From: Escherichia phage vB_EcoM-ZQ3
Length of the DNA: 64,000 nucleotides
Reading direction: 5' to 3' (one strand)
Sequence record: MW630116.1
Made by a program: the position numbers and the translations under genes. Position 1 is the first letter of the stretch; each line of letters starts with the position of its first letter. Below, in pieces: positions 34,289-55,290 of this stretch. Below the pieces are notes generated by a model, which saw only the letters and a list, made by a program, of their open reading frames with translations, searched no databases and was not told the origin of the DNA.

Positions 34289-34341
34289 TCGCTTCTAGCT
34301 CCGTATGTTATAATCACTCATAAATTATATGAGGAAAACCT

Positions 34342-35076
34342 ATGGAGCTAATCTTTTTAAGCGGCATCAAACGTAGTGGTAAAGACACTACTGCCGATTA
34401 CATCAATTCAAACTTTAAATCCGTAAAATACCAATTGGCATATCCTATTAAAGACGCTCTAGCAATAGCCTGGGACCGTAAACATGCCGAAAACCCTGAT
34501 GTATTCACTGAGTTGAAATATGAATACTTTGAAGGTGTTGGATATGACCGTGAAACACCATTAAATCTCAATAAGTTGGATGTTATTGAATTATTAGAAG
34601 AAGCGCTAATTTATTTACAAAGTCAATATTTACCAATTAATAATGTTAAAGTATTATCATCATTAGAAGGTGGGTATTCATATCTAGATATTAAACCATA
34701 TGAAGCCCTGCGTGAAGCTATAAATAATATCAACGACACATGGTCAATCCGCCGTCTTATGCAAGCCCTCGGTACGGATGTTGTCGTTAATTTATTTGAC
34801 CGTATGTATTGGGTTAAACTTTTTGCATTAAACTATATGGATTATATTGGAAGTGATTTCGATTACTATGTTGTAACCGATACACGCCAAGTCCATGAAA
34901 TGGAAACCGCTAGAGCGATGGGTGCTACAGTTATTCATGTGGTTCGCTCTGGTACGGAATCCACTGATAAACATATTACAGAAGCTGGGTTGCCTATTGA
35001 AGAAGGCGATTTAGTTATTACAAACGACGGCTCTTTAGAAGAGCTTTATTCTAAAATTGAAACAATCTTAAGGTAA
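34342..35076 (+). CDS. 1: deoxynucleoside monophosphate kinase gp1
   Basis: 244 aa; P-loop LSGIKRSGKDT; matches recalled T4 gp1. Confidence 0.92.
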   Translation: MELIFLSGIKRSGKDTTADYINSNFKSVKYQLAYPIKDALAIAWDRKHAENPDVFTELKYEYFEGVGYDRETPLNLNKLDVIELLEEALIYLQSQYLPINNVKVLSSLEGGYSYLDIKPYEALREAINNINDTWSIRRLMQALGTDVVVNLFDRMYWVKLFALNYMDYIGSDFDYYVVTDTRQVHEMETARAMGATVIHVVRSGTESTDKHITEAGLPIEEGDLVITNDGSLEELYSKIETILR

Positions 35077-36133: not shown

Positions 36134-36173
36134 GTTTACATGCTGATAGGACTATGTTATAGTAGTCCTATCA
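36134..36173 (+). promoter_or_regulatory. early promoter cassette with palindrome
   Basis: GTTTAC then GATAGGACTAT/ATAGTAGTCCTATC inverted repeat. Confidence 0.5.
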
Positions 36174-37366: not shown

Positions 37367-37882
37367 ATGAATATTTGTTTAGGCAGTACAATTCCTAAGG
37401 GCTACGTAATTGATGTCACTACCTATGAAAATGATGGTGACAACTATAAAACCAAAACATTGTTTGAAGTGGAAGAGCATGAGCTCCAACAGTTTAAATA
37501 TCTCTTGAAGAAATTTAAGAGCCGTCATTCTAGCACTAAAGCCGAACGTTATTGCGGTAATACACCATTCAGTGATTGTTCGCTTTTAATCTATGAATAC
37601 TTGGTTGAAGGACTGTTCTCAGACCAGCTTTATCCAGAATTCATTAAAAAGGTCTTTGGTATCGAAGTTGACCTTGGTGACAAATCCGAAGAAGATGAAA
37701 CACGTGTATTCGACCTATTCTTTGAGAGCGGAGATGAGATATCTCAAGGACTTATTGATATTCTTGGCTATGCTTCTGAATACTATGATTACGATTTCTT
37801 GCGTGTAGTTGAACGTGTTGAATTCGCTTATATTGAAGAAGAAATTGTTTTGCCGACTGTTAAAATGATTGATTTGCTTTAA
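37367..37882 (+). CDS. hypothetical protein
   Basis: 171 aa, acidic. Confidence 0.55.
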   Translation: MNICLGSTIPKGYVIDVTTYENDGDNYKTKTLFEVEEHELQQFKYLLKKFKSRHSSTKAERYCGNTPFSDCSLLIYEYLVEGLFSDQLYPEFIKKVFGIEVDLGDKSEEDETRVFDLFFESGDEISQGLIDILGYASEYYDYDFLRVVERVEFAYIEEEIVLPTVKMIDLL

Positions 37883-37961
37883 GAATTATGTGTTATTATT
37901 AATTCATACCCTCTATTACCAAAGGTGCTCTAAAGTGCCTTTCATAATAGAAAGTTATTAA

Positions 37962-38036
37962 GGCCCTGTAGCTCAATGGGAGAGCTGTCAGCTCATAACT
38001 GATAGGTAGCTGGATCGAAACCAGCCAGGGTCACCA
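37962..38036 (+). tRNA. tRNA, anticodon CAT (Met or Ile2/lysidine)
   Basis: hand-folded cloverleaf: acceptor GGCCCTG/CAGGGTC, D stem GCTC/GAGC, anticodon loop CTCATAA, T arm GCTGG-ATCGAAA-CCAGC, encoded CCA. Confidence 0.8.
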
Positions 38037-38042
38037 AACAAA

Positions 38043-38114
38043 TGGTGCATCGTATAAAGGTTATTACGGGGAGCTGTTAACTCCTTTATCTTGGTTCGAG
38101 TCCAAGTGCGCCAG
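38043..38114 (+). tRNA. tRNA-Asn (anticodon GTT)
   Basis: acceptor TGGTGCA/TGCGCCA, anticodon stem GGGAG/CTCCT loop CTGTTAA, T arm CTTGG-TTCGAGT-CCAAG; D stem only 3 bp; no encoded CCA. Confidence 0.65.
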
Positions 38115-38188
38115 TAATTTAAACGAAGTAAATTAAGTGCTCTATCCAAATAATAAATACTCCTATATTTTATAGGAGATAATTGGTA

Positions 38189-38854
38189 ATGAGCATTTGT
38201 AAACATTGTAATATGGAATTTGATATTTCTAATAAACCTAAAGGATGGATGGCTAACCACACTAGATGGTGTAAATCCAACCCTAAATTGGAATTGTATA
38301 AAGAAAGTTCTAAATCAGCCATTGCAGCAATGAATAAAGCACGTATAGCTTCAGGTAATTTAAACCAGTATGTTGTATCTAAAAAGACTGGTGTCCCTGT
38401 AGTAATTTCGGAAGAGACTAGACAAAAATTGTCAGCCGCTTCATTAGGTAGAGAACACTCTGAGGAATCTAGAATAAAAATATCTAATGCTCGGAAAAAA
38501 TGGTTGAATGAAAACCCTGATAAACATCCTTGGAAGAAAAATACAAAATTTAAATCTGTGCCTTGTGAATTTTTGAAATCTAAATTAATAGAAAACGGAA
38601 TTTCATTTATTGAAGAATACCAACCGGTTAAAAACCGAGCGTATTGCACGGATATTGCTTTAATAGATAAAAAGATTATTATTGAAGTTAATGGAAACCA
38701 ACATTACTCCAATCCTAAGAAAAAGATTTTGGCCCCTTATTATAAAGAACGCCATGATATTATAAAATCATTAGGATGGGAAATATATGAACTTCATTAT
38801 GCTGAAGTTTATAAAGAAGATATTGTAAATAATTTAATTGCCTCTATAGTGTAA
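38189..38854 (+). CDS. putative homing endonuclease (Zn-finger / NUMOD3-like / C-terminal Vsr-DUF559-like nuclease domain)
   Basis: 222 aa from MSICKHC; CxxC...H..C N-terminus, NUMOD3-like ETRQKLSAASLGREHSEESRIKISNARKKW, C-terminal IIEVNGNQHY...D...GWEIYEL; located in tRNA cluster like T4 segB. Confidence 0.6.
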   Translation: MSICKHCNMEFDISNKPKGWMANHTRWCKSNPKLELYKESSKSAIAAMNKARIASGNLNQYVVSKKTGVPVVISEETRQKLSAASLGREHSEESRIKISNARKKWLNENPDKHPWKKNTKFKSVPCEFLKSKLIENGISFIEEYQPVKNRAYCTDIALIDKKIIIEVNGNQHYSNPKKKILAPYYKERHDIIKSLGWEIYELHYAEVYKEDIVNNLIASIV

Positions 38855-38915
38855 TGGATAGCATATAATCGTTCTAAGGTTAATGGTGAGAGTTCAAATC
38901 TTTCTAGAGGCACCA
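38840..38915 (+). tRNA. tRNA-Arg (anticodon TCT)
   Basis: acceptor GCCTCTA/TAGAGGC, anticodon stem TAATC/GGTTA loop GTTCTAA, T arm GAGAG-TTCAAAT-CTTTC, encoded CCA; overlaps last 15 nt of upstream ORF. Confidence 0.8.
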
Positions 38916-38933
38916 ACTTTAAGTGAGGAAAAT

Positions 38934-39278
38934 ATGAAAGGCAATATTTATTTGGTAGTTCATGATTTAACGTTTTATTTTAACGAACAGGATACAGTTA
39001 TTTCCGACCGGTTGATTAATTCGTTATATCAACACGCTGATTACGTTTATTTTCAAAATGAATTCGGACATTGGAAGTTTCTTAAAAACCGTTCCGGGTT
39101 AACTAGTTTTGAATACTTTGACCGTAAAGACCTTTTAAACGAAATTCCATTACAACATCGGTTCCAGAAACGCGAATCACTATACTATTGTCGCCATATA
39201 CCAAATGCTGAATGTGTTTATGAAGCGATTAATCTATGGCGTCGGCGTCGAGAGCAAATTGATGATATGCCAAAATAA
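38934..39278 (+). CDS. hypothetical protein
   Basis: 114 aa from MKGNIYLVVHDL; RBS GAGGAA; longer ORF start lies inside tRNA-Arg. Confidence 0.5.
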   Translation: MKGNIYLVVHDLTFYFNEQDTVISDRLINSLYQHADYVYFQNEFGHWKFLKNRSGLTSFEYFDRKDLLNEIPLQHRFQKRESLYYCRHIPNAECVYEAINLWRRRREQIDDMPK

Positions 39279-39279
39279 G

Positions 39280-39588
39280 AAGCCGGGTCGCTACCGGCAA
39301 GACGTCGGACTGATGTTCCCTGAGTAAGGATTGGTCTTAATAAATCTTTACGATTTGTTAATACCCCCTTACATCACAGCAGAAACGGCGCACAGAATTA
39401 TCGATTCGAGGAAATATCTTTGCCGTAAGCCGAGTAGCGTTTTTGACGGAACGTTCGGATATGGTCGAGATATGGCCTTTTAAAAATATTGAGTAGCGTC
39501 AACTGCTTAATAACCGGGTTCGAATCCCGGCGTTTCGTACAAACACTTACCTAGTAGGTGGAAACCCGACAAGGTTGCCGCAAGGCAT
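39280..39588 (+). ncRNA. ORF-free structured region, candidate small stable RNA(s) or decayed tRNA genes
   Basis: about 310 nt without ORF; hairpin GCCGG-GTCGCTA-CCGGC at 39282-39298; tRNA-like T arm CCGGG-TTCGAAT-CCCGG (39514-39530) with acceptor-like pairing CGGAACG/CGTTTCG but no canonical D/anticodon arms. Confidence 0.3.
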
Positions 39589-39617
39589 AGCCCCTTCCGA
39601 AAGGTTGGGGCTTTTTT
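39589..39617 (+). terminator. intrinsic terminator
   Basis: AGCCCCTTCC-GAAA-GGTTGGGGCT followed by TTTTTT. Confidence 0.55.
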
Positions 39618-39618
39618 G

Positions 39619-39626
39619 TATAAATA
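39619..39626 (+). promoter_or_regulatory. late promoter TATAAATA upstream of IP-like gene
   Basis: exact TATAAATA 36 nt upstream of ATG 39662. Confidence 0.45.
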
Positions 39627-39661
39627 TAGTAAACAATAAACCTACTTTCTAAGGACCATCA

Positions 39662-40282
39662 ATGTATACTTTTAATGAATTTTTAGCCGAAACGGAAGTA
39701 ATCACCGAAGCCGGCGTACGTATGACAAAAGAGAAATGGCAAGCTGCTTACGATGCTATTTCTGGTACAAAAACTAGTACAGAGTTTTTCAAAAACGTTC
39801 AAGCCATGTACGGTATCGACACTTCTAGCCAAAAAGAATATTACAGAGCTTCTAAAGCATTCAAAGATATTGTTAGTGGTGGTGTTTCTGCTAAATCGGG
39901 TTCGCCTAAAGTAAAACCTGCTCCTACCATTCCTAAACCTGCGACCCCTAAAGCAAAACCTGAGCCTAAGCCTGAAGTAAAAGCAACTCCTAAAGCTCCT
40001 GCTCTTAAGTTTGATACTTCTAGCCTGGAAAAAAAATATAAACAACTATCTTCGCTTGTTCGTGATATTGAATCCGATACATCTTCACTCGTTCGTGAAT
40101 TCAATATTCTTCGTAATGGCCAACATATCAACAACCTTGATACTCCAGACCTTTATCGTCTTTATTTGACTATCGAAGGTTTGAAGTATACTCAACCACT
40201 TCACGATGCGATTAAAGAAAAACTTCGTCAGGCAGGTCGTTTGGCTGCTGACGCTGCTCAGTATGCAAAAACTCGTAAGTAA
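39662..40282 (+). CDS. internal protein-like protein with capsid-targeting N-terminus and Pro/Lys-rich linker
   Basis: 206 aa; N-terminus MYTFNEFLAE-TE (variant of MKTYQEFIAE); low-complexity KPAPTIPKPATPKAKPEPKPEVK segment. Confidence 0.55.
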   Translation: MYTFNEFLAETEVITEAGVRMTKEKWQAAYDAISGTKTSTEFFKNVQAMYGIDTSSQKEYYRASKAFKDIVSGGVSAKSGSPKVKPAPTIPKPATPKAKPEPKPEVKATPKAPALKFDTSSLEKKYKQLSSLVRDIESDTSSLVREFNILRNGQHINNLDTPDLYRLYLTIEGLKYTQPLHDAIKEKLRQAGRLAADAAQYAKTRK

Positions 40283-47774: not shown

Positions 47775-47808
47775 GTAATAAATACCTCCTATAAACGTGG
47801 GAGGTATT

Positions 47809-48297
47809 ATGAATATATTTGAAATGCTTCGTAATGACGAAGGTCTTAGACTGACTTTATACAAAGACACCGAAGGCTTTTGGACGATTGGCATAGGCCA
47901 TTTAGTAACAAAGAACCCGTCTTTAGCCGTAGCTAAAGCTGAACTTGACAGAATGATCGGTCGTAAATGCAACGGTACAATTACCCTTGATGAGGCTGAA
48001 AAGCTATTTAATGAAGACGTTGATAAAGCCGTTCGCGGAATCTTGGGTAATGCTAAACTTAAACCGGTATATGATTCTTTAGATGCAGTTCGTCGATGTG
48101 CATTGGTCAATATGGTCTTCCAAATGGGTGTAGCAGGCGTCGCAGGTTTTACTAATTCTCTTCGTATGCTTCAACAGAAACGTTGGGATGAAGCGGCAGT
48201 AAATCTAGCCCAATCTAAATGGTATCGTCAGACACCTAATCGCGCGAAACGCGTAATCTCAACATTTAAAACAGGAACTTGGAAAGCGTATATATGA
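47809..48297 (+). CDS. e: lysozyme (endolysin)
   Basis: 162 aa from [31 protein letters not shown]; catalytic Glu11/Asp20/Thr26 context conserved as in T4 lysozyme. Confidence 0.95.
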
Positions 48298-54762: not shown

Positions 54763-54975
54763 ATGCAGCAATTAAACGAAAGACAACTTCGTAATCTTAC
54801 TGTAACCCAACTGGATGAAATCCGAAGAGAATTAGGACATTCTATTTCTCATTTAAACGAGGATATCCGTCAAACTGGTTCTAAAGCTGATTATACACGC
54901 AAGCGCAAGCTGGAAAAATACCTCACAGATGTTAAGGCCGTCCAAAGGCGAAAAATAAATACTGGCCAAAATTAA
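54763..54975 (+). CDS. hypothetical protein (rI.1 position)
   Basis: 70 aa basic protein between tk and rI. Confidence 0.5.
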
Positions 54976-54987
54976 CAGGAGGCCTAT

Positions 54988-55290
54988 ATGGCCTTAAGAG
55001 CGATAGCTGTCATGGCGATGCTGGGGTTTTTTGCAGCAACAACTCCTATCGTTGGTACTGCGTACACCGACCCATATTTTGATAACTTTATGGAATCAGG
55101 GATTAAAAACGTATATACTTTGTTTGAAATTCAAAATGTCGAGAATTCTGAAAAATTCTATAAGTATATGGCAAAGCATTACAAAAATAGCCCCTGTGAT
55201 GATGCATTTGAATGTCATGAACAAGGCATAAAAACTGCCAGACAATTTGCCGAGTTCATGAAAATAAAATTAGAGCCTACATCTATCTAA
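54988..55290 (+). CDS. rI: lysis inhibition regulator RI (antiholin)
   Basis: 100 aa; signal-anchor then DPYFDNFMESGIKNVYTLFE...CDDAFECHEQG as recalled for T4 RI. Confidence 0.85.
   Translation: MALRAIAVMAMLGFFAATTPIVGTAYTDPYFDNFMESGIKNVYTLFEIQNVENSEKFYKYMAKHYKNSPCDDAFECHEQGIKTARQFAEFMKIKLEPTSI

Follow-up and report, generated by a model that had tools for sequence, protein, structure and literature searches.

A probable late-promoter/hairpin translation switch in the leader of a free-standing Vsr-like homing endonuclease gene in a phage tRNA cluster

Introduction

On long early transcripts of phage T4 the initiation region of the lysozyme gene e is sequestered and translation is lowered about 100-fold (PMC3014915). 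RNAs from two late promoters just upstream lack the 5' part of this structure and are translated (McPheeters et al. 1986, reviewed in PMC3014915). An arrangement of late promoter and hairpin was also shown for I-TevI and described for I-TevII, I-TevIII, T4 segB and Aeh1 mobE (PMC2988022). The gene soc is counted in this class as well. For segB, a hairpin of -20 kcal over the Shine-Dalgarno sequence (SD) and the AUG was noted in 2008 (PMC2330249), and the predicted late promoter was marked in a review of 2010 (PMC2988022). In metagenomic sequences, Dassa et al. saw hairpins with TATAAATA in front of free-standing endonuclease genes, Vsr-like ones included (PMC2677866). This octamer, at -13 to -6, is the T4-type late promoter; position -13 is reported as A or T in RB69 and other T4 relatives (PMC1524935). 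Here we describe a leader of this kind in a stretch of 64,000 nucleotides (nt) from Escherichia phage vB_EcoM-ZQ3 (MW630116.1), which is called the window in the following. The leader precedes a homing-endonuclease-like gene at 38189-38854 in a tRNA cluster. It is probably a T4-type temporal translation switch, with the late start inside the hairpin, on a free-standing homing endonuclease gene.

Results

Elements of the leader

The following elements were found, all on the + strand. Positions are those of the window.

38134-38142, + strand: 5' arm of the outer helix, TAAGTGCTC (fold).
38146-38149, + strand: 5' arm of the middle helix, CCAA, pairing with TTGG at 38183-38186 (fold).
38151-38159, + strand: TAATAAATA, which carries the late box and abuts the inner hairpin (sequence).
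38152-38159, + strand: late-promoter-like box AATAAATA, a candidate gp55-type element for -13 to -6 (sequence match).
38160-38167, + strand: 5' arm of the inner hairpin, CTCCTATA, with the anti-SD CUCC (sequence and fold); it corresponds to -5 to +3 of the predicted late promoter.
38168-38170, + strand: loop of the inner hairpin, TTT (sequence).
38171-38178, + strand: 3' arm of the inner hairpin, TATAGGAG, with the SD GGAG at 38175-38178 (sequence and fold).
38183-38186, + strand: 3' arm of the middle helix, TTGG, between SD and AUG (fold).
38189-38191, + strand: start codon ATG of the endonuclease gene (sequence).
38191-38199, + strand: 3' arm of the outer helix, GAGCATTTG, consisting of the G of AUG and codons 2-4 (fold).
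38189-38854, + strand: free-standing homing-endonuclease-like gene of 221 amino acids (aa) (open reading frame (ORF), Pfam, AlphaFold model, Foldseek).
47776-47811, + strand: leader of the window's lysozyme gene e, used as comparator, with TAATAAATA at 47776-47784 and ATG at 47809 (sequence and fold).

Box, arms, loop, GGAG and ATG were checked in the sequence and lie where a previous reading of the sequence alone had placed them. The inner hairpin CTCCTATA-TTT-TATAGGAG (38160-38178) is perfect, with arms of 8 base pairs (bp). GGAG stands 10 nt before ATG 38189, and in the annotation of phage Mizar the 3' arm is the ribosome-binding site. Since the N-terminus MSICKHC is kept in homologs, ATG 38189 is favoured over the in-frame TTG 38183.

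The sequence-only reading had also stated that the order of the elements matches the e leader. This was confirmed by sequence and fold at 47776-47811, where a helix of 12 bp (47781-47792/47797-47808) sequesters GGGAGG. One correction concerns the box, which is the A-variant AATAAATA and not the canonical TATAAATA at the endonuclease gene and at the window's e alike. Furthermore, in Kosakonia phage Kc304 lysozyme has the leader TAATAAATA-CTCCTATA-TTAACG-TATAGGAG-TTTCT-ATG, with box and arms identical to those of the endonuclease leader, and thus the very same arms serve e in another T4-like genus.

Predicted folding and opening energies

With RNAfold the leader (116 nt) folded into three nested helices which bury SD and AUG (-23.9 kcal/mol, z = -2.89, reached by none of 200 shuffles). 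The helix partners are 38134-38142/38191-38199, 38146-38149/38183-38186 and 38160-38167/38171-38178; within the AUG, the G is paired. The opening energy, i.e. the free energy to open -16 to +3 around the AUG, was calculated on a read-through RNA of 140 nt. It amounted to 15.5 kcal/mol, rank 4 among the 53 SD-bearing ORF starts, with e at rank 3 (17.5 kcal/mol) and a median of 5.6 kcal/mol. When shuffling was confined to the part before the predicted late start, with dinucleotides preserved, the observed opening energy was reached in 0 of 200 cases, and seven of eight homologous leaders gave the same result. The upstream segment is specifically responsible for the high opening energy.

According to the -13 to -6 rule, the box at 38152-38159 would set +1 within the 5' arm, at about 38165. 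A late RNA from there is predicted to start with AUAUUUUAUAGGAG and to lack the CUCCU anti-SD and both outer 5' arms. Its opening energy is 3.6 kcal/mol compared with 15.5 kcal/mol for the read-through RNA. Similar drops from read-through to late RNA were calculated for the window's e (17.5 to 5.0 kcal/mol), T4 e (16.1 to 2.0-4.7 kcal/mol) and T4 segB (18.1 to 5.7 kcal/mol).

The palindrome by itself is within chance. The window has a G+C content of 38% and short inverted repeats are abundant; 275 short-range ones of at least 8 nt were counted, imperfect ones included. The pattern ATAAATA-N0-6-CTCC-N6-20-GGAG, which was drawn up after the data had been seen, matches twice in the 64 kb, at the endonuclease gene and at e, against 0.01 expected matches. 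The window contains 29 [T/A]ATAAATA boxes, and only two of them (38152 and 47777) are directly followed by an SD-sequestering hairpin. Not the palindrome alone but the composite arrangement, the two further helices burying the AUG, and the conservation are the significant features. An Rfam scan of 37700-39800 found three tRNAs only; the leader matched no known RNA family.

Leaders of related genes

The endonuclease protein was found by tblastn in 33 phage records. Metagenomic relatives came from a protein-database search and four contigs. Twelve distinct leaders from T4-like phages were compared, covering Mosigvirus, Gaprivervirus, Klebsiella/Enterobacter, Providencia, Acinetobacter and Citrobacter phages and metagenomic contigs. 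These are the window type, DCP548, PSD2001, L048, two Klebsiella/Enterobacter types, L046, Providencia, two Acinetobacter types, L047 and Citrobacter CkP1. The window-type leader is 100% identical in eight carrier records and 99% identical in a ninth.

In all twelve leaders a late box lies 22-33 nt before the ATG, as canonical TATAAATA in ten and as AATAAATA in the window type and CkP1. The predicted +1 falls inside or after the 5' arm in all twelve, so that the strand pairing with SD and/or AUG would be excluded from the late RNA. Opening energies across the set were 9.1-20.0 kcal/mol for read-through and 1.4-6.2 kcal/mol for late RNA. The pairing sequences differ. In the Acinetobacter leaders the box lies within a long stem (CAUGAAGUAUAAAUAUCUC.../...GGAGAUACUUCAUG), and in the Providencia leader the box region pairs with the AUG region. 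The Citrobacter leader has a 12-bp stem sequestering AAGGAGA; its box reaches from the end of the 5' arm into the loop, where the predicted +1 lies too. Judged from these folds, the same design appears with differing pairing sequences in the 11 other leaders of the gene family.

Five leaders could be aligned. Helix pairs were counted on a hand-anchored alignment, as MAFFT had misaligned the 3' arms. Two double compensatory changes, five single changes which keep a wobble or standard pair, and one break were found. The double changes are A-U to G-C in the outer helix and C-G to U-A in the middle helix (DCP548). The break concerns the middle helix of PSD2001; in the Klebsiella phages this helix is extended. 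Distant IMG/VR relatives (L015-L044, L050), which are mostly not T4-like and lack the design, were kept out of the covariation count. In general, the comparative evidence is the strongest argument for the predicted switch.

Read-through from the tRNA cluster

The scan for terminators detected no genuine one on the + strand upstream of 38189. Matches to early-type sigma-70 promoters lie at 36135 and 36467 (+), but the promoter scan gave as many hits as expected from shuffles, hence these are leads only. In T4 the tRNA cluster is transcribed from an upstream middle promoter (PMC2330249). Since only tRNA genes lie upstream of the endonuclease leader, no translating ribosome would melt the structure on read-through RNA.

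The motif GGTGCTCTA/AGTGCTCTA occurs twice, at 37924-37932 and, in the 5' arm of the outer leader helix, at 38137-38145. The first copy lies just upstream of tRNA-Met with CATAAT 10 nt further on. It resembles a MotA box (TGCTTtA), and by sequence this site might be a middle promoter of the tRNA cluster. The leader copy was rejected as a MotA-box middle promoter, as its spacing to -10-like hexamers is 6-8 nt and not 11-13 nt.

The gene product

The protein consists of an N-terminal CxxC/HxxxC element with a NUMOD3-like motif and a C-terminal Vsr-like (EDxHD/DUF559) nuclease domain. Pfam DUF559 was matched with 21.4 bits (cut-off 20.6), and RAP was marginally under its cut-off. NUMOD3 reached 18.9 bits in the window protein, under the cut-off of 20.4; six of 19 relatives match it, the best with an E value of 7e-6. 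The PHROGs matches include homing endonucleases, and the label given to many relatives by the Joint Genome Institute is 'very-short-patch-repair endonuclease'.

A sequence search of the PDB with the single protein gave noise only. With a profile of the 19 relatives, the best match was 3R3P, the catalytic domain of I-Bth0305I (E 0.0057). An AlphaFold (AF2) model from an alignment of 66 sequences had a predicted local distance difference test score (pLDDT) of 90.9; the model from the single sequence was unusable (pLDDT 46). The top Foldseek match to this model in the PDB was again the catalytic domain of I-Bth0305I (3R3P_B, E 7.1e-4, probability 1.00, template modelling score 0.65 on the target), and the next ones in order were 3HRL (DUF559) and E. 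coli Vsr (1CW0/1VSR). Invariant in the 66 homologs are D155, E166, N168, G169, H172 and Y173. In the HMMER alignment, with the I-Bth0305I residue numbering of Taylor et al. 2011 (PMC3239194), D155 stands at the position of D196A, the EVNG block matches and H172 lies within one residue of H213; the final Asp was not identified. By model and sequence, the product is thus assigned to the Vsr-like/EDxHD homing endonucleases (Dassa et al. 2009, PMC2677866; Taylor et al. 2011, PMC3239194).

Mobility and tRNA neighbours

Two tRNA genes flank the endonuclease gene:

38043-38114, + strand: tRNA-Asn, immediately upstream, with tRNA-Met further upstream; part of the insertion compared with empty-site Mosigviruses.
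38840-38915, + strand: tRNA-Arg(UCU), the endonuclease-linked allele; the final four codons of the ORF and its stop codon are formed by the first 15 nt of the tRNA.

The window belongs to an RB69-like T-even phage of the genus Mosigvirus and shares 99.8-99.9% identity with Escherichia phages HY126 and F2 over 37900-38950. The gene is carried by about 10 of 230 related phage records; in many carriers it is labelled 'hypothetical protein' or left unannotated. Empty-site Mosigviruses, which are endonuclease-free, have tRNA-Met, 3 nt and then tRNA-Arg. The tRNA-Arg allele of the carriers is strongly diverged. In DCP548 this tRNA is chimeric (L003 2348-2423 compared with window 38840-38915 and L005 1641-1717), with the 5' two-thirds of carrier type and the 3' third of resident Mosigvirus type. 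The acceptor stem is thereby mismatched, and the tRNA escapes detection by ARAGORN. A chimera of this kind would be expected where a co-conversion tract stops within the tRNA gene. The sequence-only reading had called the gene mobile-looking, and this is borne out by the nuclease fold, by presence and absence among close relatives and by the linkage to the diverged tRNA-Arg allele. The PSD2001 homolog stands directly after a T4-like tRNA-Ile and before tRNA-Arg, i.e. in the slot of segB in T4.

Several observations concern the surroundings of the gene. Relatives adjoin tRNA genes in other Straboviridae, in Rhizobium Kleczkowskaviridae phages and in many IMG/VR contigs, jumbo-size metagenomic ones included (L006-L013, L015-L044). 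Among these, the N-terminal DNA-binding parts vary and the C-terminal NPDKHPWK...EVNGNQHY module is kept. In phage G2285 (L002 2209-2300), tRNA-Asn is still present and the leader extends halfway into the 3' arm of the hairpin (window 38177), where sequence matching about window 39250 takes over. This is a deletion by which the endonuclease gene was lost together with tRNA-Arg and the greater part of the following ORF. The tRNA-Asn is absent in empty-site Mosigviruses and DCP548 and present in window-type carriers and G2285; the Acinetobacter homologs of the endonuclease gene also directly follow a tRNA-Asn. This distribution may reflect co-transfer of tRNA and endonuclease gene.

At its 3' end the ORF runs 15 nt into tRNA-Arg (38840-38854, GCC TCT ATA GTG TAA, the acceptor and the start of the D-arm). 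The same overlap was found at L006 1643-1657, L004 2200-2214 and L003 2348-2362. Thus, an RNase P cut at the 5' end of tRNA-Arg would leave a non-stop mRNA without the last four codons. A similar cut has been proposed for T4 segB, where it would separate the stop codon from the last sense codon (PMC2330249).

The presumed homing site is the endonuclease-free tRNA-Arg allele. Directly before the late box, the segment with the outer 5' arms (38134-38150, TGCTCTATCCAA; in DCP548 TTAGAACGGTGCTCTATTCAATT) resembles the reverse complement of this tRNA-Arg from D-arm to anticodon loop. The similarity was tested against 15 tRNAs in both orientations, with the segments L003 1639-1663, L004 1493-1517 and L006/L009 about 955-970 included. 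For DCP548, 21 of 23 positions match the inverted resident tRNA-Arg with one 3-nt gap (0 of 2000 shuffles), and for the window 11 of 12 positions match (24 of 2000 shuffles). The endonuclease-free tRNA-Arg was the best of the 30 comparisons for four of five leaders; the window leader matched T4 tRNA-Pro slightly better (12 compared with 11). The similarity is significant in the DCP548 and Klebsiella leaders, weak in the window leader and absent from the Acinetobacter, Providencia and Citrobacter leaders. It could be an operator of the I-TevI kind, a homing-site mimic, a relic or chance.

Other sites in the window

Among the 53 starts, the SD-AUG opening energy is highest, at 19.5 kcal/mol, for the ORF from 34342 (244 aa, dNMP kinase/gene 1 homolog). 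At 34300-34345 a hairpin CACTCATA/TATGAGG covers the SD GAGG, and a -10-like hexamer TATAAT lies just upstream (34310-34315). By its sequence, the site is a possible counterpart of the endonuclease leader in which the promoter within the hairpin is not a late one. A further AATAAATA at 54954 precedes an ORF of 100 aa (ATG 54988), whose SD GGAGGCC pairs with GGCCUU just inside the coding region (12.6 kcal/mol). At 54954-55000 both arms lie downstream of the box, hence a late transcript would keep the structure, unlike an e-type switch.

Discussion

The elements of the leader, their geometry, the predicted energetics, conservation with covariation, the nuclease fold and the mobility signature were obtained directly. 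From these we infer promoter activity, the +1 position, and the block of translation and its release. In the proposed mechanism, early or middle RNA polymerase would run from upstream promoters through tRNA-Met and tRNA-Asn into the endonuclease gene. On this read-through RNA, 38134-38199 would fold into the three nested helices, with CUCC pairing to GGAG and the outer helices closing over the AUG. Not melted by upstream translation, the structure would block binding of the 30S subunit. Late in infection, gp55-RNA polymerase would recognise AATAAATA at 38152-38159 and start at about 38165 inside the 5' arm. The late RNA would lack the anti-SD and the outer 5' arms, the initiation region would be open and the endonuclease would be made late only.

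The sequence-only reading had suggested that the gene is translated only from a late or internal start and is silent on read-through RNA. Geometry, opening energies and the 11 further leaders agree with the direction of this suggestion, but 'only' and 'silent' exceed the evidence. In T4 e, the structure lowers translation about 100-fold (PMC3014915).

Several points weigh against a switch. The 61-nt fold, which comprises the inner hairpin, is modest (z = -1.64, equalled by 12 of 200 shuffles); hence, repression would depend on the outer helices forming too. Moreover, the folding energies are thermodynamic predictions on arbitrary transcript windows. Compared with relatives that have the canonical box, the window box AATAAATA has one nucleotide inserted. 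With 10 nt against 6-7 nt in the relatives, the SD-AUG spacer is long here, so that late translation may be weak. For T4 segB, Brok-Volchanskaya et al. saw no mapped promoter nearby and suggested permanent restraint (PMC2330249).

The last three points would also fit a leader which only represses. In this case the three-helix structure would keep the endonuclease permanently very low, and AATAAATA, which departs from TATAAATA, would be a decayed relic or A/T-rich sequence, i.e. an inactive promoter. We consider this unlikely. The lysozyme of the window must be expressed late, and the sole box abutting its hairpin is the same AATAAATA. By analogy with this identical variant and with the A or T given for -13 in RB69-type phages (PMC1524935), the A-variant box at the endonuclease gene is expected to be active. 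Furthermore, a perfect TATAAATA at a fixed position to the 5' arm in 10 of the 12 family leaders is hard to explain without promoter function, and the complete identity of the leader in eight carriers also speaks against this reading.

Very unlikely is an element which acts as DNA or on the minus strand, either a protein-binding operator or a minus-strand intrinsic terminator with the hairpin followed by TATTTATTAT. The terminator scan flagged the palindrome on the minus strand, enzymes of the I-Bth0305I type are dimers recognising pseudo-palindromic sites (PMC3239194), and I-TevI binds an operator over its own late promoter (PMC2988022). However, DCP548 and Klebsiella phage Shark keep the helix via G-U pairs only, which are C-A mismatches in a minus-strand RNA and break the DNA palindrome. 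The G-U pairs of the relatives thus make the structure specific to + strand RNA. The stem has only three G-C pairs, the minus-strand 'T-run' is the mere complement of the late box, and no minus-strand genes converge at the leader. In Acinetobacter, Providencia and Citrobacter phages the pairing partners differ, yet SD and/or AUG are always sequestered. A Rho-independent terminator on the + strand was rejected as well; there the hairpin is followed by AUAAUUGG, and the scan flagged the minus strand only.

There is likewise little to recommend a role in RNA stability or processing, in which the hairpin would shield GGAG from the early endoribonuclease RegB or mark an RNase site in the tRNA precursor. 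In early mRNAs GGAG is a cleavage site of RegB, from which folding of the RNA gives protection (PMC3014915); moreover, the gene sits in a heavily processed tRNA precursor (PMC2330249). Protection from RegB and a translational block are not mutually exclusive, but the stability reading leaves unexplained why the late box is always placed to exclude the 5' arm, and the outer helices, which cover the AUG, are unneeded for protection. Chance, i.e. an 8-bp palindrome beside an A/T-rich octamer in an A/T-rich intergenic region, is extremely improbable: short palindromes are common in the window and the small fold is non-significant, but the composite motif (2 against 0.01 expected), the segment shuffles (0 of 200) and above all a design kept with covariation in 12 leaders speak against it, and the comparative sequence data effectively refute it.

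The predicted switch could be one of three stacked controls in a tRNA-cluster-specialised Vsr-like family, together with an autorepression operator and with tRNA-Arg maturation and mRNA integrity being mutually exclusive per molecule. This combination is a rather speculative proposal, and on balance we doubt it.

With this locus, the classic late-promoter-in-hairpin device is extended to an uncharacterised family of Vsr-like homing endonucleases, which colonises tRNA clusters in at least six T4-like phage groups. The mechanism is already known and its understanding is unchanged. That different sequences arrive at the same design speaks for selection of late-only expression in selfish nucleases, in line with the published view that such endonuclease genes must be kept off early. 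For annotators, box and hairpin leader are a simple signature of these genes.

Regarding the enzyme, the window protein shares with I-Bth0305I, Hef and the metagenomic 'fractured gene' endonucleases the C-terminal Vsr-like fold, putative N-terminal DNA-binding modules and free-standing genes in phages (PMC2677866, PMC3239194). Those Vsr-like (EDxHD) endonucleases are tied to introns, inteins or replication genes, whereas the window subfamily is tied to tRNA clusters. The N-terminus also differs, with NUMOD2/helix-turn-helix there (NUMOD2-like repeats in I-Bth0305I, PMC3239194) and CxxC...HxxxC with NUMOD3-like repeats here. In the literature consulted, no characterised member of the tRNA-cluster Vsr-like subfamily was found.

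I-TevI, I-TevII, I-TevIII and Aeh1 mobE are likewise homing endonuclease genes in early or middle units with a sequestered ribosome-binding site, where the RNA of a late (or middle) promoter lacks the inhibitory arm (PMC2988022). They are intron-encoded, or HNH or GIY-YIG enzymes, in contrast to the window gene. I-TevI autorepresses via an operator over its late promoter, and of this there is a mere hint in the endonuclease leader. With T4 e, the leader has in common the order of late box, anti-SD, loop, SD and AUG, the late start inside the 5' arm (predicted here) and comparable opening energies. In T4 e, an essential lysis gene that follows an ORF, there are a single 12-bp helix and two late boxes, whereas the endonuclease gene is a selfish gene preceded by tRNAs and its structure is composite.

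The closest precedent is T4 segB rather than e, as it is an endonuclease gene at the same locus for which the arrangement was already described (PMC2330249, PMC2988022). The sequence-only reading had pointed to T4 homing-endonuclease leaders for comparison, and segB indeed has the same leader arrangement. Its core is near-identical, ATAAATACTC[C/T]TA...ATAGGAGAT through box, anti-SD and SD; none of 300 shuffles reached the score. segB is a GIY-YIG endonuclease gene between tRNA-Ile and tRNA-Arg, the slot shared with the PSD2001 homolog. Both have SD and AUG in a stem of about -20 kcal/mol, a box with a non-canonical first base (CATAAATA in segB), an ORF length of 221 aa and an ORF 3' end which abuts or overlaps tRNA-Arg; tRNA maturation cuts the segB mRNA near its stop codon (PMC2330249). 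Differences concern the stem, one long stem in segB compared with three helices here, and the 3' end, as the segB ORF ends 5 nt before the tRNA and the window ORF runs 15 nt into it. The proteins are also different, SegB with GIY-YIG and the window protein with a Vsr-like/EDxHD catalytic domain; BLASTP detected no similarity between them (best E 2.1) and no GIY-YIG Pfam match was obtained for the window protein. Either the segB-like cassette stayed in place while the endonuclease ORF at this slot was exchanged for another, or identical constraints led to convergence.

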